From Christensenellaceae bacterium (GTDB taxonomy: Bacteria > Bacillota > Clostridia > Christensenellales > UMGS416): DNA of 64,000 nucleotides. The notes beneath the pieces are model-generated. The model had not been told where the DNA came from, did not search any database, and worked only from the letters and a program-made list of their open reading frames with translations. Shown piece after piece: positions 5,845-41,823 of this stretch; position 1 is the stretch's first letter, and each line of letters begins with the position of its first letter. The translations under genes were made by a program, and so were the position numbers. The stretch lies in NCBI GenBank assembly GCA_963677605.2, contig CAXXDX010000002.1, forward strand, positions 266,057 through 330,056. Reading direction: 5' to 3'.

Positions 5845-7047
5845 TTATTTAAAATTTAAGCTGCAAATTTTGTCCGTTTCCCTGGCGATGCTCAGTTCTT
5901 CGTTAGTAGGAATAACCATTAGAGAAGTTTTACCTTTAGGATCTGATATAAGCTTTTCTTTTTCCTTGGAATTATTTCTATCATCATCCAAAATAACACC
6001 TAGGTAATCCATATCCTCCAATATCATTTTCCGTATTTGAGCCGAGTTTTCCCCGATGCCACCTGCAAATGCAATTATATCCGCTCCGTTCATAGAGGCC
6101 GCATATGCACCGATATATTTTTTTATTCGATAACAAAACATTGATATCGCAAGCTCTGCCCGAGTGTTTCCGTTTTCCGCTTCAAAAAGCACATCCCTGA
6201 AATCATTGCTCAGTCCTGAGACACCAAGCACGCCGGATTTTTTGTTCAAGTAACATATCGCTTCATCAAATGACATATCCATTTTTTCGGCAAGATATTT
6301 TACAGCAGTGGGATCTATATCTCCGGATCGCGTACCCATCATCACTCCTTCAAGAGGTGAAAATCCCATTGAAGTATCAACAGCCTCGCCCCTGTTTACA
6401 GCAGCAACGCTGGATCCGTTTCCCAGATGACAGGTAATAATTTTTAAGTCGCAAACATCTCTTCCTGCCAGATGTGCCGCTCTCTTTGCAACATAATCAT
6501 GGGATATCCCGTGGAACCCGTATTTTCTTATCCTATATTCTTCATAAGCTTCAATTGGAATTGCGTAAAGATATGCCTTCCGGGGCAGCGTGCTGTGAAA
6601 TGCCGTATCGAAAACGCCTACCATCGGAATATGGGGTACAATCTTTTTACAAGCCTCGATGCACATAATATTGGCAGGATTGTGAAGAGGCGCAATGTCA
6701 GAATTTTTGTTTAGTTCAGCCATGACTTCACCGTCTAATATACATGGCTTTCTAAACCTCTCCCCGCCATGTACTATCCTGTGTCCGATTGCATCAATCT
6801 CATTAAGGTCTTTTATTATTCCAAGCTTTTGATCAATCAAAGTTTTAAACACATAATCTACGGAGTTTTGAAAGCTGCCTTCCTCTATTTCTGTTTCGCA
6901 TTCCAATTTGTCAGCTTTATACCGAAAGAAAGTGTTTTCAGAGCCGATTCGCTCGACACTTCCTTTTGCGAGAACCTCTTCGCTGTTAATGTTTATAAGC
7001 TGATATTTAAGAGAAGAGCTGCCAGCATTTAATACTAATATGTTCAT
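5845..7047 (-). CDS. ackA: acetate kinase family protein (paralog 1)
   Basis: MNILVLNAGSSSLKYQL N-terminus, then HRIVHGG, APLHNPAN, VFDTAFH, KYGFHGISH, CHLGNGSS and GGIGENS. I place the start at the ATG at 7045-7047, preceded by GAGGTG, rather than the GTG start in the track (7056). Confidence 0.9.
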   Translation of the reverse strand: MNILVLNAGSSSLKYQLININSEEVLAKGSVERIGSENTFFRYKADKLECETEIEEGSFQNSVDYVFKTLIDQKLGIIKDLNEIDAIGHRIVHGGERFRKPCILDGEVMAELNKNSDIAPLHNPANIMCIEACKKIVPHIPMVGVFDTAFHSTLPRKAYLYAIPIEAYEEYRIRKYGFHGISHDYVAKRAAHLAGRDVCDLKIITCHLGNGSSVAAVNRGEAVDTSMGFSPLEGVMMGTRSGDIDPTAVKYLAEKMDMSFDEAICYLNKKSGVLGVSGLSNDFRDVLFEAENGNTRAELAISMFCYRIKKYIGAYAASMNGADIIAFAGGIGENSAQIRKMILEDMDYLGVILDDDRNNSKEKEKLISDPKGKTSLMVIPTNEELSIARETDKICSLNFK

Positions 7048-7151
7048 AATAACCACCTCAGTCAGGCTTTTTTAGAAAACCAAAACCAGCACTGGAAAGT
7101 CAGTGCTTATGTTCATTCTTATACCCTATTTTAGAAAATATCTTTAAATTG

Positions 7152-16701: not shown

Positions 16702-17423
16702 TTATAGTCTCATTCCGCCGTCTGCCTGCATGATGTGACCTGTCACATAGCTTGCTTCGTCACTCGCCAAAAACAGCGCGACGTTTGCAATCTCTTCAGG
16801 CTGTCCGAGTCTTCCAAGCATTGTCATAGAAGCAAACTTGTCTAAAAGTTCCTGCGGTACGGTTTTTAAGATATCCGTCATGATATATCCGGGAGCGATT
16901 GCATTAACGCGTACGTTACCGCCCTTCATGGCAAACTCTTTTGCCCATGTTTTTGTAAGCCCCATAACACCTGACTTAGTCGCAGCATAGTTTGCCTGAC
17001 CGATGTTTCCAAACACTCCTACAACACTCGAAATGTTTATTATGCTTCGCCTTTTCCGCTTCTTTGCATATGCGGTCCTACAAGTCTTGTAAGATTAAAT
17101 ATGCCTGTTAAGTTTACATTTATAACAGCATCCCACATATCATCTGTCATTTTAAATGTAAGTGCGTCTTTTGTTATTCCTGCATTGTTAACCAAAATGT
17201 CCACAGAACCATACTTTTCTATTGCATAATCAAACAGTTCTTTGCAGTTTTCTCTATCTGTTACATTAATTTTGAAAAATTCAACGTTTTCATCGCTGTA
17301 TGTAAGCTCTGACATATCAGCTGCTATGACTTTTGCACCTTCCTTTGCAAAGCGTTTTGCCATTTCCATTCCCAAGCCTTTAGCTCCGCCTGTTATTATT
17401 GCAGTTTTTCCTTCAAGTCTCAT
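16702..17423 (-). pseudogene. short-chain dehydrogenase/reductase (FabG or acetoacetyl-CoA reductase-like), interrupted by a 1-nt frameshift
   Basis: The N-terminal ORF (17040-17423) has TGGAKGLG and NNAG and ends at GKGEA-stop. A second frame continues directly as SIINISSVVGVFGNIGQANYAATKSG...PGYIMTD (16702 onward). Together the two parts make one normal SDR of about 245 aa. The shift lies near 17044-17050. Confidence 0.8.
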
Positions 17424-18972: not shown

Positions 18973-19003
18973 AAAATAAAAGCATATCATCTAATGATAT
19001 GCT
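18973..19003 (-). terminator. Rho-independent terminator after the dTDP-glucose dehydratase gene
   Basis: The minus strand reads AGCATATCAT-TAG-ATGATATGCT followed by TTTATTTTG. Confidence 0.65.
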
Positions 19004-19028: not shown

Positions 19029-20021
19029 TTACGGCATATTATTGTATTTTTCTATATACCATAATACCGTGTCACGAAGATAATTATTAAAATCATTTTC
19101 TGGTTTCCAGCCTAGTTCTCTTTTAATTTTACTGGCACTGATTGAATATTTAAAATCATGCCCTTTTCTGTCCTCAATAAATGTAAGCAAATCATCTTTA
19201 ATTTTTGAGTTCGTCTCGCAGTTTATAATGTTAATAATTTTTTTTGCAATCTCTATATTCTTATACTCATTTTTTGTTGAGATATTGTATATCTCACCTG
19301 CTTTTCCATTAAAAACTACCTTTTCAATAGCACGTACATTATCCTCTGCATAAATCCAATCCCGAACATTTTGACCATCTCCGTAGATTGGTATTGGATT
19401 GCCATATAATGCATTTTTAATTACCTGCGGAATAAACTTCTCCTCATATTGGAATGAACCGAAATTATTTGACGAACGAGTTATAGACACAGGAAAGTTA
19501 TAGGTGTTATTCCATGCCATACACATTAAGTCCGCAGATGCTTTGCTGGCCGAGTATGGATTTCCCGGATTAAGCTTTGAATTTTCATCAAATTCCTCAT
19601 TAAAATCTGCACTCCCGTAAACTTCATCAGTAGAAATCTGAATATACCGTTTGTTTGATAGCTCTGTCCTCCACGATTCTTTTGCTGCCTGCAGCAATGT
19701 AAGTGTGCCTATAATATTGGTTTCTGCAAAAACATCTGCACTTTTTATTGATCTATCCACATGGCTTTCCGCTGCAAAATTTATAATATAATCAATTTTA
19801 TTATTATTTATTACATGGTATACAGCGTCATAATCTCTTATGTCGCCTTTGATAAACTTATATCTCTTATTATTTTCAACATGTTTAAGATTACTGAGAT
19901 TTGCAGCATATGTTAAAACATCAAAATTTATAACATTTACATCCTCATATTCTTTTAGTATGTGTAATACAAAGTGTGAGCCTATAAACCCGGCTCCTCC
20001 TGTTACCATTATATTTTTCAC
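19029..20021 (-). CDS. rfbB: dTDP-glucose 4,6-dehydratase
   Basis: 330-aa ORF with VTGGAGFIGSHF, STDEVYG and the YSASKASAD catalytic YxxxK. Its GTG start overlaps the upstream stop codon (GTGA). Confidence 0.9.
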   Translation of the reverse strand: MKNIMVTGGAGFIGSHFVLHILKEYEDVNVINFDVLTYAANLSNLKHVENNKRYKFIKGDIRDYDAVYHVINNNKIDYIINFAAESHVDRSIKSADVFAETNIIGTLTLLQAAKESWRTELSNKRYIQISTDEVYGSADFNEEFDENSKLNPGNPYSASKASADLMCMAWNNTYNFPVSITRSSNNFGSFQYEEKFIPQVIKNALYGNPIPIYGDGQNVRDWIYAEDNVRAIEKVVFNGKAGEIYNISTKNEYKNIEIAKKIINIINCETNSKIKDDLLTFIEDRKGHDFKYSISASKIKRELGWKPENDFNNYLRDTVLWYIEKYNNMP

Positions 20022-21295
20022 AATATATTCCCCTCTGGCGCAAACTTATATTTGTCCGGATAATCACTATATCTTATTATCATATTGCACCCTTTTTCAT
20101 CGGTGATAATTATCTCGTCATATGCACTGTCAATTCTTCCAGCAAGTTCTTCTTGGTTTCTTGCCACTACAAGAAAATATCCCGCTCGGGCTGTAGCATT
20201 TTCTATCCCACCTACAATATCACCGACTCTTTTAGCTATTGAAAGCTTGCTTACTCTGTTTTTAATAAGCTTTTCTTTATCGTATGATATACCTGTAATT
20301 TTGCCTTCTCTTAAGAAAAACATCTGCGTTGACAAGAAAATTTTATTGCTCTTAAGATTATAATTTAAATAATCATTTAAATCCACATCGTATCCTTTTA
20401 TTTCGCTAAGAAGAATATCCAACACATCAATACCCGTTATAACAGGAATCGTAACATCCTCATATGCACCGCCTATCCGCATAGCAATTTCATTGACCTT
20501 AATTCCATCACTACCAATGAGATACTGAAAATATACAGGGCCGTTTTCAAATCCAAAAGTTTTTATTATCCTTTCAGTAATTTCCTCTATTTCATCATAT
20601 CTTTTTTTCAAATGAACAGACGGAAAGTTGTGAGCGATGCATATACCAATATGGTTACCTTCCGACAAAGTCACTCTGTCCACTACGGAAAGCAAAGTCA
20701 GTTTACCATCTTTAAGCCATCCGTTAACAGTTATCTCATCGCTTTCATAATACTCTTCAATCAACACTTTATCCTCTCGTGAAAACGATAGAGTGTCATC
20801 TATGTATCTTCTTATTTCATCTATTGAGCTTACTTTATATATTCCGCGCTGTCCCTGTGAGTCTACAGGCTTTATTACAGCCGGAAATGTAATACTTTGT
20901 ACCTCATTATCTGAAAAATCTTTTCCAATCAAGGCATAGACAGCGGTAGGTATATCATTATCCTTAAAAATCTTTTTCATAACACGCTTGTTTGTTGCAG
21001 ACAACGCCTGCTCAGGTGTGAGATAGAAAGGAAGTCCAAGCTCATCTGCAACGACCGCTGCAGTATAAATAGGCTGATCTGTGCCCAATGTAACTATAGC
21101 ATGGGGTTTATATTTTTTTGCAGCTTCAAGAACAGCCGGTACATCAAAAGTCGATATCTGGAGATGCGCGTCACACATCTTGCTTCCAATGCAATTGGGT
21201 AAATAATCAACCAAGAAAACTTCATCGCCGCAGCTTTTAAGCCTCTCGATAAGGTTAATCTGGCAATTGCTGCCTCCTAATACCATTACCTTCAT
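20018..21295 (-). CDS. ATP-grasp domain ligase of unknown substrate
   Basis: 425-aa ORF. It has a pre-ATP-grasp Rossmann-like N-terminus (MKVMVLGGSNCQ), a central VIKPVDSQGQRGIY block and IEEYYESDEITVNG, then a later VNEIAMRIGG block. Start and stop overlap with both neighbours. Confidence 0.7.
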   Translation of the reverse strand: MKVMVLGGSNCQINLIERLKSCGDEVFLVDYLPNCIGSKMCDAHLQISTFDVPAVLEAAKKYKPHAIVTLGTDQPIYTAAVVADELGLPFYLTPEQALSATNKRVMKKIFKDNDIPTAVYALIGKDFSDNEVQSITFPAVIKPVDSQGQRGIYKVSSIDEIRRYIDDTLSFSREDKVLIEEYYESDEITVNGWLKDGKLTLLSVVDRVTLSEGNHIGICIAHNFPSVHLKKRYDEIEEITERIIKTFGFENGPVYFQYLIGSDGIKVNEIAMRIGGAYEDVTIPVITGIDVLDILLSEIKGYDVDLNDYLNYNLKSNKIFLSTQMFFLREGKITGISYDKEKLIKNRVSKLSIAKRVGDIVGGIENATARAGYFLVVARNQEELAGRIDSAYDEIIITDEKGCNMIIRYSDYPDKYKFAPEGNIL

Positions 21296-22029
21296 ATCTG
21301 CCCCCTGATTACTTTTTCCAAATTATAAGAGCCTTTGCTATTGCCATGCGTGTTTTTAAAAATACGCTTTCTGTAGTTTGTATATATTTTAAAATAAAGC
21401 TTTATAAGCTTCCAAAAAGAATAATTCGTTTCAGCTTTCTTATAACCTTTAATATCGATGTTTGCAATGTTTTTTGTATACTTCAATATCTCCATAGAAA
21501 CATACACAAACTCAGTATTTGCTCTTATTACTTTATGCCTTATGTCTCTGTTCATTATTCTATAACTTGACACTTTTATATCCTTCGGCAGCTTCGTAAG
21601 TACTCTGAACAGTAAATCTCTCATTACAGAACCAAATCCCCTGGGCCCTAAATAAGGCATTATTCCGTATACCACGTCGTAGCCTTCCAGTGCTTTATTA
21701 TAGAGCCTTTTTATATCGCTTGGATCCTGCTCCAAGTCGTCATCGATTATAACAGTATACTCATACCTGGCAAAACTCAACCCACAAAGCGTAGCACTTT
21801 GCTGTCCGTAGTTTCGATCCAGCTTTATTGCTATAACGCTTTTATTGATAATGGCCAAGCCCGATATCTTCTCCCAACTGTTATCCAAGCTGCCATCATC
21901 AACGAGTATTATCTCATAGTCATCAAACTGACCAAGCACGTATAAAAGCTCTTCCACCAGCTTTGAAACTGTTTTTTCTGAGTTGTAAACAGGTACTACG
22001 ACCGAGATGCTGGAATCAATTTTTTTCAT
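21292..22029 (-). CDS. family-2 glycosyltransferase of the polyprenyl-phosphate sugar transferase type (ArnC/GtrB/DPM1-like)
   Basis: 245-aa ORF with SVVVPVYNSEKTV, ILVDDGSLDNS, DRNYGQQSA and IIDDDLEQDP (DxD). Confidence 0.75.
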   Translation of the reverse strand: MKKIDSSISVVVPVYNSEKTVSKLVEELLYVLGQFDDYEIILVDDGSLDNSWEKISGLAIINKSVIAIKLDRNYGQQSATLCGLSFARYEYTVIIDDDLEQDPSDIKRLYNKALEGYDVVYGIMPYLGPRGFGSVMRDLLFRVLTKLPKDIKVSSYRIMNRDIRHKVIRANTEFVYVSMEILKYTKNIANIDIKGYKKAETNYSFWKLIKLYFKIYTNYRKRIFKNTHGNSKGSYNLEKVIRGQI

Positions 22030-23119
22030 AACACTCGCCTATTCGTTTTGCAATCTCTTCACAATCTTCGGGTTTCATCTTTGCATGCATCGGAAGGCGA
22101 AGCATACATTGGCATACATGCTCTGTGGCGTGTAACGCTGTTTTTCCCATATTTTGCCATTTCCCCGCCGTATGCAGCGGCACATAGTGGATAACTGCCT
22201 CAATTCCTGCCTCTTTAAGAAGATTTGCAACCTTTTGTTTCTGCGCTTCATCCTCCATCACTATATAAAACACATGCGCGTTGTTCTTGTTATTATCAGG
22301 AACCAGCGGAAGGTGTATGCCATGCTTTTTAAACGGCTCAAGAGCCTTCATGTAGCAGTCATATATAAGCCTCTGCTTGGCCGTTATCTCTTCCGCCCTG
22401 TCAAGCTGCGCGCATAAAACAGCGGCAGCAATATTGCTCATCTTGGCATTCATACCAACATCCTGCCATGAATAAAAAGAAACTTCTCCGTTCAAAAAAG
22501 CCCTTCTGTCCGTTCCGTTTTCATATATAATATCAAGTTTTTTTATAATGCTTTCATCGTTTAAAATTACAGCGCCGCCTTCATCGGAAGATACGTTTTT
22601 TGTCTTATGAAAAGATATTATCCCAGCATCGCCGATTGCACCCAACGGCTTGTCATTATATTTTGCGCCAAACGAAAGAGCTGCATCCTCTATTATCTTA
22701 ATATCCGAAAAAGCTCCTCTTAAACGCTCCATGTCACATGAAGCACCTCCGTAATGGGTTGGTATCACGCACACGGTTTTTGCGGTTTTGCGTTTCAGTG
22801 CGTCATCTATGTCCATCACTAAAGTTTCAGGATCAATGTCGCAGAAAACTGGATCCAAACCGAGCCGAAGTATGCTGTTTGCTGCCGAAGGATACGTAAA
22901 TGACGGCAAAATCACTTCCCCGCCTTTCGGAAACTCATAAGCAAAAAGCAATAAATCAAGTGCGGTTGAACCGTTTGCGGTTAAGTAAACTTTGCATCCG
23001 TAATAGTCCGAAAGTCTTTTTTCAGCTTCACTCAAAAAATCCGTGCCCGAAAGCAGCGCTTCTGTTACATTAAGCGCTTCATTTTCATCATAGTACGTTT
23101 CTTTGAATTTTATGCTCAT
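22016..23119 (-). CDS. DegT/DnrJ/EryC1/StrS family PLP-dependent sugar aminotransferase
   Basis: 367-aa ORF with a candidate PLP-lysine block (ISFHKTKNVSSDEGGAV), plus PTHYGG and IEDAALSFGA. Confidence 0.88.
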   Translation of the reverse strand: MSIKFKETYYDENEALNVTEALLSGTDFLSEAEKRLSDYYGCKVYLTANGSTALDLLLFAYEFPKGGEVILPSFTYPSAANSILRLGLDPVFCDIDPETLVMDIDDALKRKTAKTVCVIPTHYGGASCDMERLRGAFSDIKIIEDAALSFGAKYNDKPLGAIGDAGIISFHKTKNVSSDEGGAVILNDESIIKKLDIIYENGTDRRAFLNGEVSFYSWQDVGMNAKMSNIAAAVLCAQLDRAEEITAKQRLIYDCYMKALEPFKKHGIHLPLVPDNNKNNAHVFYIVMEDEAQKQKVANLLKEAGIEAVIHYVPLHTAGKWQNMGKTALHATEHVCQCMLRLPMHAKMKPEDCEEIAKRIGECYEKN

Positions 23120-24639
23120 CTTACTACCTTATAAACCTTTACAGACCAGTTTTTATTATCAGCAAATTTTACAATACGCATCGCATACGGCGAGTAAAAC
23201 TCGGTTTGAAGCTCACACTTTAAATCAAGAAATTCTTTCATGTCTTCATAGTATGGATATATGTTGCCGTAAACGATATTCCACACAGGGCGTGTTTCAT
23301 AAATATAGTCCATCTCCTCAGGATATATTATATACTCAATCCCGTTTTTATTCACATAGTCTGCAAAAGACATATTGTTGTCATCCAAATATCCTAAGTT
23401 TCTGTAATCATAAAGCGCGTCATAGGATAAAGCATATTCCGCATTAAGGTTTGCAAGCACTTTCGCATCTTCCGGAACTGCATTTTCAATATCGTTAAGA
23501 TATTCTTTATAATCATTATTTATATATGGCATCACCTGCATGGCAGATGATATTACAGTCAATACAGCAACTACCGCAATAACAAAAATTTTAAATCTCT
23601 TTATCTGATTTATCAAAAATATAGTAAGAATAAAGCTTGTTACAAACATCAGAAAGTAAGAAGGCTGTGAATATCTCCCTATAATTATATAGCCGATGTT
23701 TACAGCTATTACAGGAAAAATATACGCAAGCACTTTCTTGTTCCAAAATGCATATATAGCTCCTCCTATAATTGCTATAGCAAATACCGCAAGCTGTGCT
23801 TTTATCCATGGCGTATAGTATGTTCCGGAAATCCACAGCCACAGCTTTTGATAATATGGAACTATAGCTTTGATTTTCTGACTAAAAGTCATGGTAACGC
23901 CCAGATGATCTCCGTATTTGAGGTAATGCGTAATAAACTGCGAGTCGAAAATATAGCTTATGCCTATAAACAGCCCAGCAAACAGCGCAACAATCCCCAC
24001 CAAAACAGCTAAGTTTTTAATCTTAGCCTTTTTGTCAATTGCAATATAATAAATATACACGCTGCCTACTGCAAGAGCCGCGATAAACGAATTAGGATGT
24101 ATGCCTATCATAATCCCTATTATTAAGCCGGTAACAATATCATTTTTTATTGACCACGAACCAATATTTTTATACAAATAATATAGAGCAAATAACATCC
24201 CGAATGCTATAATTATCTCCTGCCTTGCAAAATGCGAAGCGTACAGAAACTGAACATTAAATGCCAGAGCCGCAGCTGATACTGCTAAAAAAATCTTATT
24301 CCCTGATATGACATATACCAGCTTATAAAAGACATATAATAATGCGCATCCGAAAATCAGCGACAAAAGCCTTACCGCAAACAGATTATAACCAAACACC
24401 ATTATAAAAGGCATCTGCAAAATATGAAAAATTGTTTTTATCGCGTGCGGATATCTGGGAAGCAAATCGAAAAACGTTTCAGTGGAGCTTACGCCCTCAT
24501 TCATCATGGTTCTCGTAAGTCCCGAAAGCCACGACTCATCCGAGTGCATGAATGGGAATTTATCAAGAAAAAAAAGATTTATAAGAAAATACAATCCCAA
24601 TAAAGATATCAATATTATGTTTTTGTTTTCTTTCTTCAT
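23116..24639 (-). CDS. GT-C fold membrane glycosyltransferase (ArnT/PMT-like)
   Basis: 507-aa ORF with about 11-12 hydrophobic helices. An acidic motif lies in the first predicted outside loop (FPFMHSDESWLSG). The C-terminal ~110 aa are soluble. Confidence 0.6.
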   Translation of the reverse strand: MKKENKNIILISLLGLYFLINLFFLDKFPFMHSDESWLSGLTRTMMNEGVSSTETFFDLLPRYPHAIKTIFHILQMPFIMVFGYNLFAVRLLSLIFGCALLYVFYKLVYVISGNKIFLAVSAAALAFNVQFLYASHFARQEIIIAFGMLFALYYLYKNIGSWSIKNDIVTGLIIGIMIGIHPNSFIAALAVGSVYIYYIAIDKKAKIKNLAVLVGIVALFAGLFIGISYIFDSQFITHYLKYGDHLGVTMTFSQKIKAIVPYYQKLWLWISGTYYTPWIKAQLAVFAIAIIGGAIYAFWNKKVLAYIFPVIAVNIGYIIIGRYSQPSYFLMFVTSFILTIFLINQIKRFKIFVIAVVAVLTVISSAMQVMPYINNDYKEYLNDIENAVPEDAKVLANLNAEYALSYDALYDYRNLGYLDDNNMSFADYVNKNGIEYIIYPEEMDYIYETRPVWNIVYGNIYPYYEDMKEFLDLKCELQTEFYSPYAMRIVKFADNKNWSVKVYKVVR

Positions 24640-24659
24640 AATCCTCTATGCAATCTGTT

Positions 24660-25292
24660 TCATATCTTTTTCACTACAAAATACTGTGAATTATAATTAT
24701 CTTCACATAGCTCAATTGTTCCGGATTTTTCAATTATTAAACCGGCATCTTTTATAAACTCCGAAAACTTCTCCACTGTTCTGAAAGAGAAAAACCTCTC
24801 TCCCCTGCCACCATAGTCTTTAAAGCCTTCATTGCTTTTTTGTTTGTCGCCATACTGACACAAAATAATCATCCCGTTCAGCTTTAATACTCTTTTAAGC
24901 TCATATATAACAGAAGGCATCTCAGCGTTTGGTATATGCAAAAGACAGTTCATCGCATAGATTACATCAAATGAATTATCCGCAAATGTCATGTCGGAAA
25001 AATCCATAACATGTGCATCAATCCCCTTATCCCAACACCTTTTAACATGCTCTTGCGATAAATCCACAGCGGTGACATCAAGACCGTTTTCCATAAAAAA
25101 CAAACTGTCCTGCCCGGTTCCCGCGCCTATTTCAAGAATGCTTTTTAAACCTCTATCTTTAATTATCGAAAGAAAGTCATTCCGCAAGTCAATTTTCCAA
25201 TCGCTTTTTATCTTAGCATCTCTTTCAACCACATTCTTATTATAATAATCTTTCAGCTGAGCTTTATTATTGTCCATTATTGAACCTTTCAT
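24660..25292 (-). CDS. class I SAM-dependent methyltransferase
   Basis: 210-aa ORF with motif I ILEIGAGTGQDSLFF and the acidic post-I residue in VTAVDLS. Confidence 0.85.
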   Translation of the reverse strand: MKGSIMDNNKAQLKDYYNKNVVERDAKIKSDWKIDLRNDFLSIIKDRGLKSILEIGAGTGQDSLFFMENGLDVTAVDLSQEHVKRCWDKGIDAHVMDFSDMTFADNSFDVIYAMNCLLHIPNAEMPSVIYELKRVLKLNGMIILCQYGDKQKSNEGFKDYGGRGERFFSFRTVEKFSEFIKDAGLIIEKSGTIELCEDNYNSQYFVVKKI

Positions 25293-25467
25293 GAAGATGA
25301 GTATTAATAATATACCATATTTTTCATTAAAAAGTTTAGTTCATATTAATCATATAATACTATTAATAAAAACCTGTTTAGAATGTTTTTAAAGCACTTA
25401 GATAACAAACCCCTGCGGACATGTGCCTGTATTGATCTTTTATTTTTATCTAACAATTTAGTTAACC

Positions 25468-25497
25468 AATAAAAATCCGCGGACATGTGCCGCGGAT
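25468..25497 (-). terminator. Rho-independent terminator ending the sulfur-relay operon
   Basis: The minus strand reads ATCCGCGG-CACATGT-CCGCGGAT followed by TTTTTATTGG. Confidence 0.65.
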
Positions 25498-25637
25498 TTC
25501 AATGATTAATTCTTTTGTCCGCTCGCAAAGCGCAAAACATAAAAATGCATAAGTGAATTTATTCACGAATTTTTTGTGTTTTGTAAGACTCTCGCCCGAA
25601 TAATTTTTCGGGCGAAAGCAAAGCTTTGCTTTGCGTA

Positions 25638-27239: not shown

Positions 27240-28133
27240 TTACGAAGCGTCTTGCCTCGTGGGTGTGATATCTTCTGCCGGCGGCTGCGGGTTTTCAACA
27301 TCCTCATATTCCAACCAAGCCCCGTCATATATCCTTACATCTTTGTATCCTGCATCCTTGAGCGCCGCATAGCTCTGGGCAGCCCTCACCGATGTTTTGC
27401 AGAATAATATTATTTTAGTTTCAGGCGTAATGCCTTCCGCTATATATGTGCTCTGTATGTCGCGCGGAGTTTTATACTCTCCGTTTGCATACATGTTCCA
27501 CTTATATTCCTTGTGACACGAGCCGGGGATTGTTCCCGCGTAGTACTCTTCGTCGCTGCGTGTGTCTATAATCACCGTGTTTTCATCCGGCATGTTGATT
27601 ATCGACTTCACATAGTCCAGCGTCACAATAAGTGATTTCTGATAGTCGCCCGCAACATACTCAGCCTCGGATGTTTCCACCTTGGCAGAGTTCATTGCGA
27701 CATCCGCTTCCTTGAGAGCTTCAAATCCGCCGCTTATGACGCGAACATTGAAGTTTGAATACATGTTAAGCGTCCACTGCACACGTGCGGCCTGCATATT
27801 ACTTGCATTGTCATAAACCAGGATCTCGTCGCTTGCGGTGATTCCTGCAGCGCTCATGACCGCCTCTACCTGCGCGGTGTCCGGAAGCATGTTTGCATAC
27901 GGCTCACCGACTGTAAGCGCACCCATAGGAATGTTTACAGCTCCTACAACATGGTTTAAGCCATAGTCTTCAGCGCTTCTTACATCCACGACAGTTATGC
28001 CGTCTTCGATAAGCGCTGCCGCTTCTTTTGGTGTCACAATGTATTCGCCGGTTTCAGCAAAATCAAAGTTTGCACATGCCGAAAACGAAAGAATCATCAA
28101 TGCAGTCAGAATTATTAGCATTCTCTTTTTCAC
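27240..28133 (-). CDS. lipoprotein with two rhodanese domains (inactive N-terminal plus catalytic C-terminal), thiosulfate/3-mercaptopyruvate sulfurtransferase architecture
   Basis: Lipobox LMILSFSAC. The first domain has Asp at the active-site position (VYDNASNMQAAR). The second has FCKTSVRAAQ. I place the start at the GTG at 28131-28133, preceded by AAGGAG with 7-nt spacing. The longer track ORF overlaps the upstream gene. Confidence 0.82.
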   Translation of the reverse strand: MKKRMLIILTALMILSFSACANFDFAETGEYIVTPKEAAALIEDGITVVDVRSAEDYGLNHVVGAVNIPMGALTVGEPYANMLPDTAQVEAVMSAAGITASDEILVYDNASNMQAARVQWTLNMYSNFNVRVISGGFEALKEADVAMNSAKVETSEAEYVAGDYQKSLIVTLDYVKSIINMPDENTVIIDTRSDEEYYAGTIPGSCHKEYKWNMYANGEYKTPRDIQSTYIAEGITPETKIILFCKTSVRAAQSYAALKDAGYKDVRIYDGAWLEYEDVENPQPPAEDITPTRQDAS

Positions 28134-29381: not shown

Positions 29382-29939
29382 TTACATAAAGTACTTAACC
29401 AGCAGTTTGCTGCCGATCACTGCGCCGCCGAACATAAACAGGGCAAAAACCCAGCCTGAAAGCGACAGTGAAGCGATTCCCGAAAACAGTGCGCCGATGT
29501 TACAGCCTGCTGCAATGCGTGCACCGTATCCCATAAGAAGTCCGCCCAGTGTTGCGGCAGCAACCTGTTTCCATGACTTAATTTTCTTAAATTTGAAACC
29601 TGAAGCCATAAGCACAGCAAAAAGTGCTCCGAATATAATTCCTATGTTTCTCCATGTGGGTGCATGGCTTAAAAAGCCTGCTTCAAGCGTGGCCTGAGCA
29701 CCCGGGGAAGAAAAGTAATACCATTTGTCAACCGAGCCGCCCACAGCTTCAAAGAGCCAGGCTCCCCAGTTTGCAAATATTCCCGAAACGCCCCACGGAT
29801 TGCCTGTTGTAGCAAATGTAACTATCTGAAAAACAGAAAGCAGAACCGCTCCGGCAACATATGGCAACGCATTTTTAAACCACATCTTGTAGAATTCATT
29901 TTGTTTTATATTGTCAAAAAATTTCTTCAAGTTTCTCAC
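29382..29939 (-). CDS. YeeE/YedE family sulfur-transport membrane protein, C-terminal-half equivalent
   Basis: 185-aa hydrophobic ORF with the GARIAAGCNIGALFSG cysteine loop typical of the family. Confidence 0.75.
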   Translation of the reverse strand: MRNLKKFFDNIKQNEFYKMWFKNALPYVAGAVLLSVFQIVTFATTGNPWGVSGIFANWGAWLFEAVGGSVDKWYYFSSPGAQATLEAGFLSHAPTWRNIGIIFGALFAVLMASGFKFKKIKSWKQVAAATLGGLLMGYGARIAAGCNIGALFSGIASLSLSGWVFALFMFGGAVIGSKLLVKYFM

Positions 29940-29964: not shown

Positions 29965-30192
29965 TTATGCTTTTTCTATGATGCATTCCCATTCGCCGTC
30001 GTCAACTTCTTCAAGCTCAACTTCGTGACCTTGTTTGCGTGCCCATTCAGGAACGTTTTTCATTGCGCAGCTATGGTCGATCTGAACGATAAGCACATCG
30101 CCTGATTCAAGTTCTTCAAGTGCTTTTTCTGCTTTGATAAGTGGTACAGGGCAAGCCTCGCCCAAACAATCCAATACGACTTCTTTACTCAT
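29965..30192 (-). CDS. TusA/YeeD/SirA-like sulfur carrier protein
   Basis: 75 aa starting at MSKEVVLDCLGEACPVPLIKAEKAL, with the CPxP motif. A GGAGGAAACAAAA RBS precedes this ATG. The longer track ORF (to 30261) overlaps the upstream gene. Confidence 0.88.
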   Translation of the reverse strand: MSKEVVLDCLGEACPVPLIKAEKALEELESGDVLIVQIDHSCAMKNVPEWARKQGHEVELEEVDDGEWECIIEKA

Positions 30193-30233: not shown

Positions 30234-30941
30234 TTAATCCTCTTTTTTGCGGTTTTCCCATTTATGTGCGATTACGTATATTACTGCGATGATAAGAAGG
30301 TTGCACAAGAGTCCTCCGAACCACCCGAATGCTGTTGAATTAAATAATTTTGTAAATACATCAGGAAGGAATATTCTCTTTCCGGTTACTATGAAGTTGC
30401 GATACCACCATCCATAGTCATGAGCTCCCCACAGCGAGCCTACAACGAAAAAGAAAAGTGATATAAGCTGCATCCAGAATCCTTCGCCTATTCTCATCAG
30501 TGTGCCCGATGCGCAGCCGCCTGCAATAACCATACCGATACCAAACATAAATGCGCCGATACCTGTTGCAATTGAAACCGGAGCCACATAGCTTTGTCCC
30601 GGAATAGCCTGTCCGTTTACAAATGCTCCGTACTTTATTGCTGTAAACGCAATTGAAGTTATGGCAAATGCTATAAGAACCGCTCTTGTTACGGTAGTTG
30701 ATCCTGTAAGGTAGGGATCGCGCATAGAAGCTGTGAAGCAAAAGCGTGCGCGCTGCAGGATAAAACCAAAAGCTAAACCTGTCATCCAATAGAGCCCGAG
30801 GTTTTCACCTCTTAACGTCAAAAGAACGCCTATTACAACGATGATTACGATAAGCCCTAATGCTATAGGTATCTGATTCATCCTTTTTTTGCGTTTTCTG
30901 CTTGATGCTCTGGAAGAAGTTCTGATTGTGCTTTCTGACAT
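30234..30941 (-). CDS. YeeE/YedE family sulfur-transport membrane protein, N-terminal-half equivalent
   Basis: 235-aa hydrophobic ORF with the QRARFCFTAS and IAGGCASGTLMR cysteine loops. Confidence 0.75.
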   Translation of the reverse strand: MSESTIRTSSRASSRKRKKRMNQIPIALGLIVIIVVIGVLLTLRGENLGLYWMTGLAFGFILQRARFCFTASMRDPYLTGSTTVTRAVLIAFAITSIAFTAIKYGAFVNGQAIPGQSYVAPVSIATGIGAFMFGIGMVIAGGCASGTLMRIGEGFWMQLISLFFFVVGSLWGAHDYGWWYRNFIVTGKRIFLPDVFTKLFNSTAFGWFGGLLCNLLIIAVIYVIAHKWENRKKED

Positions 30942-31119: not shown

Positions 31120-32016
31120 ATGAATATAGAATCTTTAAAATATTTCTATATGATTGCCAAGGCGGGAAACATAAGTTCCGTCGCAAAAAGCGTGCACCTT
31201 TCTCAGTCTGCACTATCCCAACAGATTCAGCGCCTTGAAACAGATTTTGAAAAAAAGCTTCTGATACGCTCCAATAAAGGCGTTCAGCTCACACCTGACG
31301 GTAAGATAGTTTACAAATTTGCAAGCAACATCCTTCGCACATACGAACACATGATGGAAGAGCTTGAAAGCGAATCAAGGAAAAACATAATTATAAAGAT
31401 TGAAGCTCCGTCGTCTCTTGCAGACTATGCGCTTCCCTGCACGATGATAAAGGCCAATGATAAGTATCAATTGCATAAGTACGAGCTTTCCAGCAATCCG
31501 TCCTATGAAATACTTCAGAATGTTTCAAACAACATTTGCGATGTAGGATTTTCATACATGAAAACTCCGAACGGATATGACGGAGTGCTGTGCCAAAGAG
31601 CCGGCATAAACCGTATAATTCTTGCTGCACCCAACAATTCCGATTATCCAGATGCAATAAGCCTGTCAGAGCTTTCAGACATATGCCTTATAACACTTAC
31701 CGGCAAAACCGATATTAACGAAATCATCTTCGATAAGCTTGAAAAACTGGGAGTGCCCAAAAACGAGCTGAACTGCAACCTCCGCGTGGAAGGCATTGTT
31801 GGAGCTAAAATGATGATAAACAGGGGTTACGGCATGGCTTTCCTTCCTTATATTTCGGTTAAGGAAGAGCTTTATAAAAAGCAGTTTAAGGAAGTAAAAG
31901 TAGAAGGTCTTGATATGGATCTTGACATCTATCTTTTATATAAACAAATCCACACAGAACATGTGGAGGCATTTTTGGAATGGTTTAAACAAAATGGAGA
32001 AGCAAGCTTCTGCTGA
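31120..32016 (+). CDS. LysR family transcriptional regulator
   Basis: 298-aa ORF with the N-terminal HTH LKYFYMIAKAGNISSVAKSVHLSQSALSQQIQRLE and a LysR substrate-binding domain. It is divergent from the YeeE operon. Confidence 0.92.
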   Translation: MNIESLKYFYMIAKAGNISSVAKSVHLSQSALSQQIQRLETDFEKKLLIRSNKGVQLTPDGKIVYKFASNILRTYEHMMEELESESRKNIIIKIEAPSSLADYALPCTMIKANDKYQLHKYELSSNPSYEILQNVSNNICDVGFSYMKTPNGYDGVLCQRAGINRIILAAPNNSDYPDAISLSELSDICLITLTGKTDINEIIFDKLEKLGVPKNELNCNLRVEGIVGAKMMINRGYGMAFLPYISVKEELYKKQFKEVKVEGLDMDLDIYLLYKQIHTEHVEAFLEWFKQNGEASFC

Positions 32017-32021
32017 TACAT

Positions 32022-32252
32022 TTATCTTACTGTAAATGTTACTTCCCACACGCCGTTCATAACTTCTTCTATATTAACGTCGTGTTTTTTGTCCAAATAC
32101 TTGTTTTTTATAGCTTCAATCGTACAGCTGTGGTCCACCACAATCATAAACGATTCCCCGCTTTTTGTGTGGGCAAGCTCCTGTTCTATTTTTAAGATCG
32201 GAACAGGACAAATATCTCCGAAACAGTCGATTAGTTTTATATCTTTTTTCAT
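32022..32252 (-). CDS. TusA/YeeD/SirA-like sulfur carrier protein (second copy)
   Basis: 76-aa ORF: MKKDIKLIDCFGDICPVPILKIEQEL, with the CPxP motif. It starts 3 nt after the stop of the upstream permease gene. Confidence 0.88.
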   Translation of the reverse strand: MKKDIKLIDCFGDICPVPILKIEQELAHTKSGESFMIVVDHSCTIEAIKNKYLDKKHDVNIEEVMNGVWEVTFTVR

Positions 32253-32255
32253 TTT

Positions 32256-33668
32256 CTACATCATAATGGACACATATCCTGCAACAAGCAGAACTGCGAA
32301 AGTTATTGCAACACCCATTACTCCCTTCTTTAGCATAAAATCAGTGTCAAGGCCGTATCCCACAGGGATGGCTCTTATTGAAGTCGGCAGCAGGAATGCG
32401 CAGTTGCACGCCGCAGCCGTAATATAAACATATTTAAGCGGCACATCGCTTATAACAGAGACAATACCGATTACAAGAGGCACTGCAACAGCGACGGCTG
32501 CCGTGTTGCTTGATGCATTGGATAAAAACATTGAAAAAGCGATTATTATTAGCAGTATCGGCAGGGTTTTGTTCAAGTCAATAAGCGACACAGCTTGTGA
32601 AACTCCTGAAAGCGCGCCTGTTGATATAAGCATATTGCCTATTGCAAGCCCGCCTGAAAACAGAATCATAAGCCCCCAGTTGATGTTCTTTTCCGCCTGC
32701 TTCCACGTGATGAGCCGTTCGTTTTTTTCGCCGTTTATAACAAAAGCTACAACGCCGAACAGCATAAACGCGAAAAAAGGCTTAAACTCCGGCAGTATGC
32801 TTGCATAAAGCGGCCTCGCAAAAGACAAAGCAACCGGAACAACAAACAGCACAAGCGATATTACCTGAGATCTTTTCATTTTTCCCGCCAGCTTATACTG
32901 CTCTTTAAAATACTTGCTGCTTCCCGGCATATTTTTTGTTTTAAACCTAAGAAGCAGAATATATGCAACAATGCCCAACGATAAAAGCGCAAGATACGGA
33001 AGCATCTTTGCAGTCCATTCAATGAACATGAACTCTCTTCCCGTAAAGCTTTCAATGTGAGTGATAGCGACAAGGTTCATCGCGCCGCCCAAAGGCGTAC
33101 CAAAGCCCCCAAGCCCCGCGCCCCATGCGACCATCATAAGTATCATCTTGAGAAGATAGTCGCTTTCAGCCTCGTTCTCGCCACCTGCATACTGCATCAT
33201 AGCATATGCAATGGGACATAACGCTGCGACAACCACGGCGTTCGGAAGAACCGAGGACAGCACAACCGACAGCATAAACCACACGACAAGCTGCCACTTT
33301 ACCGAGGTTCCTATGACGCTCAGTGCTTTTAGCGCAATCCTCTTATCGAGGCCGGTATTTTTCCATGTTATTGTAAGCACGTTTGCACCAAGCAAGAGAA
33401 CAACTATCTGAGATGCGTAGTTTTTTAATACATCAGCCATTGGCATTATGGAAAACAGGCTGTTTATGACAATGGGCAAAAGCGCTGTCACCGCTATATG
33501 AAAAGGCCTCGTTATCCACCAGTAGACCATCAGAGCAAGCGTTGAAACGGCAATTCTTGCTTCAAATGAAAAGATGCTTTTAGGCATAACAAAAGCGACA
33601 GCAGCAAATAATATTGCTCCCGCTGCCAGATGAATAAACCGCTTTTTTGCATCCTTTGTCATTTTCAT
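32256..33668 (-). CDS. DASS/SLC13-type (ArsB/NhaD superfamily) anion:cation symporter
   Basis: 470-aa polytopic ORF. Hairpin-tip-like motifs VLPNAVVVAAL and LSNASSNTAAVAV resemble the paired SNT motifs of DASS transporters. Confidence 0.7.
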   Translation of the reverse strand: MKMTKDAKKRFIHLAAGAILFAAVAFVMPKSIFSFEARIAVSTLALMVYWWITRPFHIAVTALLPIVINSLFSIMPMADVLKNYASQIVVLLLGANVLTITWKNTGLDKRIALKALSVIGTSVKWQLVVWFMLSVVLSSVLPNAVVVAALCPIAYAMMQYAGGENEAESDYLLKMILMMVAWGAGLGGFGTPLGGAMNLVAITHIESFTGREFMFIEWTAKMLPYLALLSLGIVAYILLLRFKTKNMPGSSKYFKEQYKLAGKMKRSQVISLVLFVVPVALSFARPLYASILPEFKPFFAFMLFGVVAFVINGEKNERLITWKQAEKNINWGLMILFSGGLAIGNMLISTGALSGVSQAVSLIDLNKTLPILLIIIAFSMFLSNASSNTAAVAVAVPLVIGIVSVISDVPLKYVYITAAACNCAFLLPTSIRAIPVGYGLDTDFMLKKGVMGVAITFAVLLVAGYVSIMM

Positions 33669-40626: not shown

Positions 40627-41823
40627 TTAGTTTCCAACAAGCTCAAGAGTATCATAGGCTATCATAAGCTCTTCGTTAGCTGATATTCTAAGCACTTTAA
40701 CATTGCTGTTTTCCTTGGATATTTCCATATCCACTCCGCGAAGTTCGTTTTTCTTTTCATCGATTTCGATTCCCAAGAATGAAAGTCCGTTTGATACGTC
40801 GCGCCTTAAATCAGAGTTGTTTTCGCCAATACCGCCCGTAAAGACAATTGCGTCCACACCATTCATTGCGGCAGCGTAAGCTCCTATATACTTTTTAATC
40901 TGATAATTAAGCATATCAACAGCAATCTGCGCCTGCTTATTGCCTGCTTTTGCAGCATCCGTTATGTCGCGGTTATCCATGCTGACCTGTGAAAGTCCGA
41001 GAAATCCTGATTTCTTGTTTAATATGTCCATGACTTCATCAATGTTCAGGTTATATGAATCCATAATATATTTTACAATCGCAGGATCCAAATCGCCGCA
41101 TCTTGTGCCCATCATGAGTCCTTCAAGAGGCGTCATTCCCATGCTTGTGTCTACCGACTTTCCCCCGTCAATGGCGCAAACAGAAGAACCGTTACCAAGG
41201 TGGCAGTTTACAATTTTGAGCTCTTCAATCGGCTTTTTTATTATCTCGGCAGCTCTTCTTGCTATATATCTGTGAGAAGATCCGTGAAATCCGTATTTTC
41301 TGATTTTCTTTTCCTTATACATTTCATAAGGAAGCGCATATAGATATGCCCATTTCGGCATAGTCTGGTGGAATGCAGTGTCAAAGACTGCGACCATCTT
41401 AGCATGAGGCATGATTTCCATGCACGCCTTTATTCCCAAAAGGTTCGCCGGATTGTGAAGAGGCGCGAATTCTTTGTTTTTATCAATCGCCATAATAACT
41501 TCGTCGTCGATAACAACTGATTTTGAAAACGACTCTCCGCCGTGAACAACCCTGTGTCCCACTGCCGCCACATCCTCCAACGAAGATATAACGCCGTGCT
41601 CTTTGTCTGTTAACACATCCATAACAAGCTTTATTGCATCGCTGTGTCCTTTCATAGGCTGTTCAAGTTTTAAGTCTTCCCTGCCTATGACCTTGTGCTT
41701 GAGCACTGAGTTTTGCGCGCCTATTCGCTCTGCAACTCCCTTTGCAAGCACTTCTTCCGTACCCATATCAAATAGCTGATATTTAAGTGACGAACTTCCT
41801 GCGTTAATTACAAGTATATTCAT
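40627..41823 (-). CDS. ackA: acetate kinase (paralog 2)
   Basis: MNILVINAGSSSLKYQLFD, then HRVVHGG, APLHNPAN, VFDTAFH, KYGFHGSSH, CHLGNGSS and GGIGENN. I place the start at the ATG at 41821-41823. The 62-codon upstream extension in the track has no family counterpart. Confidence 0.92.
   Translation of the reverse strand: MNILVINAGSSSLKYQLFDMGTEEVLAKGVAERIGAQNSVLKHKVIGREDLKLEQPMKGHSDAIKLVMDVLTDKEHGVISSLEDVAAVGHRVVHGGESFSKSVVIDDEVIMAIDKNKEFAPLHNPANLLGIKACMEIMPHAKMVAVFDTAFHQTMPKWAYLYALPYEMYKEKKIRKYGFHGSSHRYIARRAAEIIKKPIEELKIVNCHLGNGSSVCAIDGGKSVDTSMGMTPLEGLMMGTRCGDLDPAIVKYIMDSYNLNIDEVMDILNKKSGFLGLSQVSMDNRDITDAAKAGNKQAQIAVDMLNYQIKKYIGAYAAAMNGVDAIVFTGGIGENNSDLRRDVSNGLSFLGIEIDEKKNELRGVDMEISKENSNVKVLRISANEELMIAYDTLELVGN

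Follow-up and report, generated by a model that had tools for sequence, protein, structure and literature searches.

Bacteria possess several systems in which a cytoplasmic glycosyltransferase of family GT2 loads a sugar onto a polyprenyl phosphate, and a membrane glycosyltransferase with the GT-C fold then transfers it outside the cell; among them are the Arn system of lipid A modification, Gtr-type systems, the Ppm1/Pmt pathway of protein O-glycosylation, and the Pgf system. This article deals with an operon in which the same two types of transferases are combined with enzymes of amino sugar metabolism, namely six minus-strand genes at positions 19029-25292 of a 64,000-nucleotide (nt) stretch, hereafter the window, from a Christensenellaceae bacterium (contig CAXXDX010000002.1, forward-strand positions 266,057 to 330,056). 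In the order of transcription they encode a methyltransferase, a GT-C enzyme, a DegT-type aminotransferase, a GT2, an ATP-grasp ligase, and the dTDP-glucose 4,6-dehydratase RmlB. With somewhat better than even confidence, we propose that the six genes constitute a lipid-carrier glycosylation module that modifies the C-terminal tail of a neighboring secreted rhodanese.

A second line of background concerns the carriers of sulfur. The sulfur-binding swinging arm of SoxY ends in GGCGG-COOH (PMC6067878; PMC5336275), and YeeE-like SoxT proteins have been proposed as importers of the sulfur released from SoxYZ (PMC11582611). That a prosthetic arm may carry sulfur instead of a protein cysteine has a precedent in the lipoyl-LbpA of the sHdr system (PMC6067878). 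Comparative genomics has also led to the proposal that YedE, YedF, and LysR_Se are selenium genes (PMC5322559). In the literature searched, an association of rhodaneses with a glycosyltransferase or an ATP-grasp enzyme, or of YedE or selenium genes with a glycosyltransferase, is not described.

A C-terminal tail that co-occurs with the module

A scan with the GT-C protein, using one genome per species, returned 210 relatives, of which 80 loci were fetched, making 81 loci together with the window; overall, this protein has hundreds of uncharacterized homologues in Clostridia and other anaerobes. The preliminary description of this DNA overlooked the genomic context: the two genes directly upstream of the operon encode secreted rhodanese proteins, and the neighborhood is conserved as a whole. 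The core module consists of the GT-C, DegT, GT2, and ATP-grasp proteins and travels with the two rhodaneses, a LysR-family regulator, a split channel of the YeeE/YedE family, a TusA-like sulfur carrier, and a thioredoxin-reductase-like (TrxR-like) protein.

The two-domain rhodanese of this neighborhood has a peculiar end. All 65 orthologues (65/65) finish with a linker of about 20 residues, rich in Pro, Ser, and Thr, followed by D-x-S-COOH, with QDGS, QDAS, QDNS, and GDAS among the variants, and the window protein closes with ...TPTRQDAS (gene end caa gac gct tcg taa). Three Desulfitobacterium/Gracilibacter loci have no rhodanese of the two-domain type, and there the same tail is found on a rhodanese of another type adjacent to the GT-C gene (...GDHS, ...GDKS). 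Within the GT-C-centered loci, a D-x-S end occurs in 68 of the 134 rhodanese open reading frames (ORFs), versus 5 of about 1200 other ORFs; a further one lies on a piece of a tailed rhodanese in L011 whose gene is frameshifted, and with this piece included a tailed rhodanese is present in 69 of the 81 loci. Eight of the 12 loci that lack it are cut by a contig end. Since the rhodaneses carry a lipobox in monoderm hosts and a Sec signal in the diderm Halanaerobiales, they are extracytoplasmic and reside in the same compartment as the GT-C active site. A G-D-G-S end was also seen on an SsuA-type substrate-binding lipoprotein of L082 (13009-13974, minus strand), which may be chance or a second tagged protein.

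The association was then approached from the opposite side, by a metagenome scan that started from the rhodanese and yielded 80 loci (24-62% identity), each scored for the presence of the GT-C. Among the 42 loci whose rhodanese has the D-x-S tail, the GT-C was found in 25, the remainder being short contigs or contigs cut on the relevant side; where both flanks measure 3 kb or more it was found in 11 of 12, and where they measure 5 kb or more in 8 of 8. When the tail is lacking, the GT-C is absent in 36 of 38 loci, many of which are still beside YeeE and TusA, and the two exceptions are a variant end, QSAS (L126), and a frameshifted gene (L124). Fisher's test gave p = 2e-7 for all loci and p = 3e-4 for those with at least 3 kb flanks, values to be read for loci that are phylogenetically non-independent.

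The most instructive contrast comes from relatives whose tail has a different end. Two loci of the reverse scan, and then eleven protein clusters (P0241-P0251), terminate in ...P-P-[ST]-G-G-C-G-G-COOH, and a twelfth cluster (P0252) in GGGGC, whereas the window rhodanese, with its QDAS end, has no cysteine in the tail. A tree from which signal peptides and tails were left out places the GGCGG clade inside the co-directional clade to which the window belongs, and the window rhodanese shares 46-48% identity with two GGCGG members, compared with 37-41% for the D-x-S proteins of the Halanaerobium type. Four independent loci of this clade (L164-L167) have the order LysR, YeeE, TusA, YeeE, TrxR-like protein, rhodanese with GGCGG, and four-domain rhodanese, after which differing, unrelated genes follow. 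A hidden Markov model search found no member of the GT-C or ATP-grasp families in L164-L166, and neither is among the gene families listed for L167. The pattern is therefore threefold: the D-x-S tail occurs with the module, the GGCGG tail without it, and rhodanese proteins with no tail are likewise without it. What has been observed directly is which genes are present, the folds of their products, the signals for secretion, and a conserved tail that co-varies with the module.

The same tail can be read in another way, as a docking or sorting tag for the C-terminal domain of the GT-C or for the YeeE channel, with the sugar going elsewhere nearby, for the sake of stability or positioning, either to the Pro/Thr/Ala-rich linkers that follow the rhodanese lipobox or to the substrate-binding protein. 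Many rhodaneses do possess a linker rich in Pro, Thr, Ala, and Glu right after the lipid-modified cysteine, and such linkers are typical O-glycosylation targets in actinobacterial lipoproteins; the C-terminal domain of the GT-C is, moreover, highly conserved, and numerous Arg, Tyr, and Asn positions in it are invariant. Against this, the N-terminal linkers of the window rhodaneses are short and the C-terminal tail is universal, and the exchange of a docking tag for a SoxY-type GGCGG arm, together with the loss of a whole sugar pathway, is not obviously to be expected, so that we give this explanation little credence.

How often the genes occur together was counted in two ways, by tblastn with the window proteins (83 loci) and by de novo clustering of all ORFs (81 loci). 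The de novo families comprise the GT-C (80 loci), rhodanese (70), ATP-grasp (67), GT2 (61), DegT (58), LysR (57), the YeeE halves (40-41), an SsuA-type ATP-binding cassette (ABC) importer (40-41), TusA (39), RmlB (29), the TrxR-like protein (27), a coenzyme A-disulfide-reductase-rhodanese (15), a DASS-family symporter (12), and an RmlA-like nucleotidyltransferase (11). Over the counting methods, the four-domain rhodanese partner is present in 44-69 loci, LysR in 57-59, and the TrxR-like protein in 27-30. Two judgments of the preliminary description change with these counts: the ATP-grasp ligase, taken for an addition, belongs to the core (67/81 loci), and the methyltransferase and RmlB, taken for parts of the system, are accessory (3/83 and 29/83).

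The hosts comprise monoderm Clostridia, diderm Halanaerobiales, Spirochaetes, and Anaerolineales, and the genes are arranged in three manners: co-directional, as in the window; with divergent rhodanese and GT-C genes and the ABC importer inside a DegT-GT2-ATP-grasp operon, as in Halanaerobiales and others; or with the GT-C and the sugar genes separated by the channel operon. Both the order and the strand of the genes are thus shuffled among clades, but the adjacency rhodanese-rhodanese-GT-C is kept throughout, which is better explained by a functional link than by synteny passed on by descent. The DASS gene and a second TusA gene form a pair that is present in the window-type (type-A) loci with the glycosylation module (L004-L019) and absent from L164-L167; this pair or, in other clades, the SsuA-type importer co-varies with the glycosylation module and not with the core sulfur operon, and either transporter could bring in an acyl or sulfur precursor. 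When the window is compared with L004 and L005, its sulfur proteins are 75-94% identical and its glycosylation proteins 46-69%.

The operon, its enzymes, and the neighboring genes

The six intact ORFs are tightly coupled, being separated in the order of transcription by a 20-nt gap and then by overlaps of 4, 14, 4, and 4 nt. The ORF list of the window reproduces exactly the genes and junction sizes of the preliminary description, and scans with Pfam and NCBIfam profiles bear out its family assignments. The features are collected in Table 1, in which SAM stands for S-adenosylmethionine, PLP for pyridoxal phosphate, and aa for amino acids.

Table 1. Coordinates of the glycosylation operon and of the surrounding features in the window
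Feature	Position	Strand	Basis or remark
Class-I SAM-dependent methyltransferase, 210 aa; operon gene 1 of 6	24660..25292	-	Methyltransf_11/25; accessory
GT-C fold membrane glycosyltransferase, 507 aa	23116..24639	-	AlphaFold model and Foldseek
DegT/WecE-like PLP sugar aminotransferase, 367 aa	22016..23119	-	PF01041, 262.7 bits
Short GT2 with ArnC/GtrB-like catalytic domain, 245 aa	21292..22029	-	PF00535; presumed polyprenyl-phosphate sugar synthase
ATP-grasp carboxylate-amine ligase, L-amino-acid-ligase type, 425 aa	20018..21295	-	ATP-grasp_4 and LAL_C2; presumed amino-sugar N-acylase
dTDP-glucose 4,6-dehydratase RmlB, 330 aa; operon gene 6 of 6	19029..20021	-	TIGR01181; accessory
Terminator-like hairpin	25472..25500	-	Separates the rhodanese genes from the glycosylation operon; 11-bp stem, then a T run
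Terminator-like hairpin	18981..19003	-	After rmlB
Four-domain rhodanese lipoprotein, 528 aa	25638..27224	-	Pfam Rhodanese x4; four CYSGQTAGQ active-site loops
Two-domain (SseA/MST-like) rhodanese lipoprotein	27240..28133	-	Pro-rich linker and QDAS-COOH; proposed GT-C acceptor
Q-D-A-S tag codons	27243..27254	-	Directly ahead of the stop codon of the two-domain rhodanese
Thioredoxin-reductase-like flavoprotein, 410 aa	28138..29370	-	CATC motif; C-terminal extension of ~100 aa with CEDC
Split YeeE/YedE-family channel, C-terminal half	29382..29939	-	PF04143; best NCBIfam YedE/FdhT, then TsuA
TusA/YeeD-like sulfur carrier, 75 aa from an internal Met	29965..30192	-	NF041048 TsuB/YeeD, 53 bits
Split YeeE/YedE-family channel, N-terminal half	30234..30941	-	PF04143
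LysR-family regulator, divergent from the channel operon	31120..32016	+	HTH_1 and LysR_substrate
DASS-family anion symporter	32256..33668	-	Upstream of the second TusA-like gene
Second TusA-like gene	32022..32252	-	Follows the DASS symporter

The preliminary description had assigned the 507-aa protein to the GT-C enzymes, and the AlphaFold model (pLDDT 93.7, pTM 0.92) agrees with it, as do the 46 best Foldseek matches, all of which are GT-C enzymes (TMq ~0.5-0.62, 10-16% identity) and which include ALG12, STT3/PglB/AglB, ArnT, DPY19, ALG9, Emb, and Pmt4. A profile of the family matched zero sequences of the PDB, and, going by the model, the protein belongs to the GT-C enzymes and lacks a near relative of solved structure. 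Its score on PMT_2 is 20.8 bits, below the gathering cutoff of 26.1, many homologues have precomputed matches to PF02366/PF13231, and Pfam finds no MIR domain. According to the positive-inside rule, the protein would have about 11 transmembrane (TM) helices, with the N-terminus inside and the invariant loops outside; these include H32-S33-D34-E35 in the first outer loop, invariant across 76 homologues, and the C-terminal alpha/beta domain (residues 376-507, about 130 aa) is predicted to be extracytoplasmic as well. A second PMT_2-type GT-C protein of 512 aa is encoded elsewhere in the window (42692-44230, plus strand), and its BLASTP match to the operon protein is not significant (E = 0.035); it was dismissed as a relative, as the two have nothing in common beyond the fold.

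The aminotransferase is closest to WecE: its best NCBIfam model is NF008687, the WecE-type dTDP-4-amino-4,6-dideoxygalactose transaminase (328 bits versus a cutoff of 375), its nearest solved structure is E. coli WecE (4piw, 1e-63), and on the ArnB model NF008658 it reaches 162 bits versus a cutoff of 631. RmlB scores 418.8 bits on TIGR01181, above the equivalog cutoff of 365.1, and its STDE and YSASK motifs are visible. In a Halanaerobium locus both the aminotransferase (494 bits) and the dehydratase exceed the WecE and RmlB equivalog cutoffs, which supports dTDP-4-amino-4,6-dideoxyhexose as the product. In 11 loci, RmlB stands beside an RmlA-like nucleotidyltransferase.

The motifs DRNYGQQSA and DDD, which the preliminary description reported for the GT2, are seen in the translation. 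The best PDB matches of this enzyme are ArnC (9hwj, 1e-22) and GtrB (5ekp, 2.8e-19), with alignments that cover the catalytic and interface part, and its score on the ArnC model NF007986 is 96 bits versus a cutoff of 529, with profile positions 7-224 of 316 matched; PgfS (NF047588) is second among the NCBIfam models, at 82.9 bits versus 500. A hydropathy scan found no TM segment, and this, together with the length of 245 aa and the likeness to ArnC/GtrB, rules out a processive synthase.

The ATP-grasp enzyme matches PF13535 (47.1 bits) and PF18603 (LAL_C2, 31.4 bits, above the cutoff of 29.4). The structural neighbors of its predicted model (pLDDT 93.5) are the uncharacterized protein 4dim, the L-amino-acid ligases 3vot (TMq 0.75), YwfE/BacD, and RizA, as well as PurT, PurK, and biotin carboxylase, and these matches identify it as a carboxylate-amine ligase, with the gene context suggesting an amino-sugar nucleotide as the amine substrate. 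The methyltransferase has a homologue in the same position only in the nearest relative, L004 (53% identity).

Two database proteins, a GT-C::DegT fusion (P0058, 884 aa) and an ATP-grasp::GT2 fusion (P0208, 665 aa), were considered as evidence of coupling and set aside as probable frameshift artifacts, because both gene pairs overlap by 4 nt and single-base errors could fuse them; the former is also implausible because, with an extracellular C-terminus as predicted for the GT-C, its PLP enzyme would sit outside the cell and make no sense there.

Downstream of the operon are unrelated genes for a thiolase, a short-chain dehydrogenase, KASIII, and Liv-type ABC proteins. With these on one flank and sulfur genes on the other, the operon lies outside any polysaccharide locus, and a standard O-antigen, capsule, or teichoic acid locus is ruled out. 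The preliminary description had named this, along with a fold other than GT-C and a processive GT2, as what would speak against it, and none of the three was found. Its statement that the operon has neither rfbA nor a small flippase ORF was confirmed from the ORF list, the intergenic space being too small for either; as regards rfbA it stands for the window operon, and in relatives an RmlA-like gene does occur, as do RmlB and a true WecE equivalog.

A riboswitch or another RNA element upstream of the operon was considered and dropped, as an Rfam scan returned nothing at the gathering score or at E <= 1, and no tRNAs were found. An inspection by eye, with no statistics, of the two upstream regions of the window for a common LysR box revealed only AT-rich near-palindromes. 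Between the rhodanese gene and the operon, the 13-mer GGCACATGTCCGC appears twice, about 55 nt apart (window ~25420-25500, minus strand). In the terminator hairpin, one copy supplies the loop and the 3' arm; the second copy lies downstream of the hairpin. Elsewhere in the window, a short-chain dehydrogenase gene (16702-17423, minus strand) is split by a frameshift into ORFs 17040-17423 and 16702-17016, in different frames and 23 nt apart, and is either a pseudogene or a sequencing error. Acetate kinase is encoded twice (5845-7056 and 40627-42009, both on the minus strand), the copy at 40627-42009 having an N-terminal extension of about 60 residues ahead of the acetokinase domain.

On the sulfur side, the four-domain rhodanese has the lipobox MKKLLVILMAAIMVFAVTAC, and the gene of the two-domain rhodanese starts with a GTG at 28133 that is preceded by an AAGGAG ribosome-binding site, its lipobox being ...ILSFSAC. 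Rhodanese proteins of the window type score 26-71 bits on the NCBIfam model rhoda_near_glyco (NF045521, 144 positions), below the cutoff of 145, and therefore are not members of that family. The TrxR-like flavoprotein reaches 318 bits on TIGR01292 versus a cutoff of 343, and the homologues of the TusA-like carrier at 29965..30192 are also 75 aa long.

Some of these neighbors raise the question of whether the locus handles selenium rather than sulfur, whichever the acceptor. In that case the secreted rhodaneses, the YedE-like channel, the TusA/YedF-like carrier, and the TrxR-like reductase would serve to take up selenium, to which the modified arm would bind. Among NCBIfam models, the channel halves indeed match YedE/FdhT best, the second TusA-like protein YedF, and LysR the model LysR_Sec_metab; for the first TusA-like protein, YedF comes second after TsuB/YeeD. 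In L034, a true gene of MnmH, the tRNA 2-selenouridine synthase, adjoins the rhodanese pair (5880-6920, minus strand; 344 bits versus a cutoff of 241), and ORFs of the same family are likewise found in L030, L041, L044, and L048. Yet every selenium-family match of the channel, the TusA-like proteins, and LysR is below its curated cutoff (155.8 bits versus 250 for the selenium-metabolism-associated LysR), and the MnmH adjacency is limited to one clade. The hosts, moreover, are well known as reducers of thiosulfate or sulfur, and GGCGG is a sulfur-carrier motif in SoxY (PMC6067878). For Halanaerobium WG8, three rhodaneses were reported to be more abundant with thiosulfate (PMC5497025); the rhodanese pair of this strain, Ga0073283_11115/11116, the first of which ends in ...PSAQDGS, is in the supplement of that paper, its membership among the three being not confirmed. 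A role in selenium handling hence appears quite improbable to us.

A proposed pathway and the points that weigh on it

The pathway that we propose would begin with RmlB and the WecE-like aminotransferase, which would make dTDP-4-amino-4,6-dideoxyhexose. The ATP-grasp ligase would then N-acylate the 4-amino group with a carboxylate, a step that would take the place of the formylation by ArnA in the pathway of 4-amino-4-deoxyarabinose (Ara4N); PurT, which joins formate to an amine, illustrates how an ATP-grasp enzyme can replace a formyltransferase. The TM-less GT2 would load the sugar onto polyprenyl phosphate, a flippase would shift the lipid-linked sugar to the outer face of the membrane, and the GT-C would transfer it, outside the cell, to the flexible C-terminal arm, made of the linker and D-x-S (QDAS here), of the lipoprotein rhodanese encoded two genes upstream of the operon. 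The terminal serine would be the simplest attachment site, and the acidic residue at -2 resembles, by analogy only, the D/E-x-N sequon of the bacterial oligosaccharyltransferases found among the structural matches. Both rhodaneses, the split channel, TusA, and the TrxR-like enzyme, with LysR alongside, would capture, import, and reduce extracellular sulfane sulfur or thiosulfate, possibly selenium.

The overall logic, from the nucleotide-activated amino-dideoxyhexose through GT2 loading to GT-C transfer, had already been outlined in the preliminary description, and the WecE-like and RmlB, ArnC/GtrB, and GT-C matches support it. Its idea that the ATP-grasp enzyme N-acylates the sugar gains from the architecture of a carboxylate-amine ligase of the L-amino-acid-ligase/PurT kind, the acylation itself being presumed.

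As to what the modification is for, the replacement of the tail by a cysteine arm exactly where the pathway is absent indicates that the modification may supply a sulfur-binding group. We tentatively raise the possibility that the N-acylated amino sugar is a prosthetic group that provides the secreted rhodanese with a thiol carrying sulfur, or selenium. In bacillithiol and mycothiol, a cysteine that an ATP-dependent ligase has amide-linked to an amino sugar serves as the thiol; in a similar fashion, the ATP-grasp ligase would acylate the amino sugar with a thiol acid such as cysteine, the polyprenyl-phosphate carrier would deliver it, and the GT-C would attach it to the terminal serine of the rhodanese swinging arm. 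There it would do the work that the gene-encoded GGCGG cysteine does in SoxY and in the sister clade without the module.

A number of points weigh against the modification of the rhodanese tail by this module. Four loci with adequate flanks (L010, L017, L049, and L067) have the GT-C and yet no tailed rhodanese within reach, and L106 has a tailed rhodanese and no GT-C within 3.4 or 8 kb. The tail-less homologues of the reverse scan are the most distant ones (24-33% identity), so that part of the correlation is phylogenetic, and the GGCGG contrast, which controls for this, amounts to one evolutionary event. Neither a flippase in the operon nor a conserved family of small, flippase-like membrane proteins across the 81 loci was found. 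DegT is missing within 10 kb in L030, L034, and L041, which keep LysR, GT2, and ATP-grasp; in this clade, DegT is either encoded elsewhere or the sugar chemistry differs. The terminator between the two operons of the window makes their co-transcription uncertain. More generally, the individual enzymatic steps, the acceptor, and the role of the locus are deduced from co-occurrence, and the glycosylation is putative.

The tempo of evolution points in the same direction. Versus the nearest relative (L004), the glycosylation proteins are 53-69% identical and the sulfur proteins 82-94%, and in 50 of 57 loci the GC content of the glycosylation genes is below that of the sulfur genes (0.367 versus 0.447 in the window). 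This looks like the replacement of a cassette or much faster evolution, and the faster divergence fits variable surface glycans better than it does a pathway that makes a precise cofactor. It therefore favors an explanation close to that of the preliminary description, which had lipid A, teichoic acid, or rhamnan-type targets in mind: the operon would serve general envelope decoration. In the manner of Arn, Gtr, CsbB/YfhO, or GacI/GacL, it would furnish a polymer or lipid of the cell envelope, be it teichoic acid, a polysaccharide, lipid A, or a glycolipid, with an N-acylated amino sugar, and its proximity to sulfur genes would stem only from a common response to the LysR regulator or to stress; a changed surface charge, for example, might ease the access of anionic thiosulfate or polysulfide to the membrane. 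The architecture fits such three-component systems, and the terminator and the four loci just mentioned agree with it too. Still, Clostridia, Halanaerobiales, Spirochaetes, and Anaerolineales, monoderm and diderm alike, have no such polymer in common, and envelope decoration leaves unexplained both the strict link with a portable D-x-S-COOH tail and the disappearance of the module at the very point where GGCGG replaces that tail. For these reasons an envelope target is not supported, and we consider it unlikely.

The glycosylation of the rhodanese tail, if true, would provide a bacterial GT-C enzyme with a sequon-like tag of a new type, and would be the first case in which an ATP-grasp-dependent acylation of an amino sugar feeds such a GT-C pathway. 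It makes a testable prediction, namely that the D-x-S tag is modified, and that a SoxY-type cysteine arm stands in its place where the pathway is absent. If the sugar is in fact a prosthetic group, it would represent a third kind of sulfur-carrier arm, after the SoxY cysteine and lipoyl-LbpA, with a glycan as redox cofactor. At least ten genes form a conserved set that couples secreted rhodaneses to a YeeE channel and a dedicated glycosylation pathway, and a conservative reading already re-annotates hundreds of "ArnT-family" and "biotin carboxylase" genes. The matter has a practical side as well, as rhodanese-dependent reduction of thiosulfate and sulfur by fermenters such as Halanaerobium drives both souring and corrosion in oil and gas systems, and is part of the anaerobic sulfur cycle.

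Comparison with known systems

The module works like the Arn, Gtr, Ppm1/Pmt, or Pgf systems and is yet a member of none of them, because ArnA, ArnD, ArnE/F, and GtrA are absent and, among the window proteins, only RmlB exceeds an equivalog cutoff. With Arn it shares the sequence of a keto-sugar nucleotide, transamination by a DegT enzyme, N-acylation, transfer by an ArnC-like GT2 onto undecaprenyl phosphate, and a GT-C outside, and, at the level of the proteins, the GT2 best matches ArnC and the GT-C has ArnT among its structural matches. It differs in that the sugar would be a dTDP-6-deoxyhexose instead of a UDP-pentose, that an ATP-grasp ligase, and not a formyltransferase dependent on folate, would carry out the N-acylation, that neither the operon nor its conserved neighbors include ArnA, the deformylase ArnD, or ArnE/F, and that the GT2 lacks the two TM helices of ArnC. 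The hosts, too, include monoderms, and monoderm Clostridia are not known to have lipid A; the acceptor would be a protein tail.

The pairing of a cytoplasmic GtrB-like GT2 with an extracytoplasmic GT-C is common to Gtr, CsbB-YfhO, GtlA/B, and GacI/J/L. Unlike these, the module is accompanied by no GtrA-type flippase in the 81 loci, it has additional amino-sugar and ATP-grasp chemistry, and it is linked to sulfurtransferases and not to genes for O-antigen, teichoic acid, or rhamnan.

The mannosylation of actinobacterial lipoproteins by Ppm1/Pmt (GT39), Pgf of Streptococcus mutans (PgfS/PgfM1/PgfE/PgfM2), and the mycobacterial PpgS/Rv3779 likewise use a polyprenyl-phosphate sugar made by a GT2, which in PpgS is also short and free of TM segments. 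Further features are shared with these systems of protein O-glycosylation, namely a PMT_2-type GT-C, an Asp-Glu pair in the first outer loop, and targets that are secreted proteins or lipoproteins. Here, in contrast, the scores on these families are far below the cutoffs, the modified site would be a C-terminal D-x-S-COOH on one partner encoded by an adjoining gene, and the sugar would be an N-acylated 4-amino-4,6-dideoxyhexose rather than mannose, N-acetylglucosamine, or N-acetylgalactosamine. The difference from GT39/PMT extends to the missing MIR domain and to the donor, which would carry an amino-dideoxyhexose and not be dolichyl phosphate mannose.

On the sulfur side, the likeness is to SoxYZ, as an extracytoplasmic sulfur protein has a flexible C-terminal arm and a YeeE-family channel nearby (SoxT in the case of Sox) (PMC6067878, PMC5336275, PMC11582611). 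The sister clade of the window rhodanese even has the GGCGG-COOH arm of SoxY, but the arm is fused to a rhodanese and not to a SoxY fold, the window arm ends in QDAS, and the hosts are anaerobic fermenters or sulfur reducers instead of sulfur oxidizers. Bacillithiol, mycothiol, and lipoyl-LbpA offer a further parallel, in which the thiol nature of the modification of the rhodanese is hypothetical. Against the background of all these systems, the novelty of the proposed dedicated GT2/GT-C glycosylation lies in its tag and its partner, and there is a realistic chance that it is new in kind, which would be so if the glycan acts as a sulfur-carrying prosthetic group.

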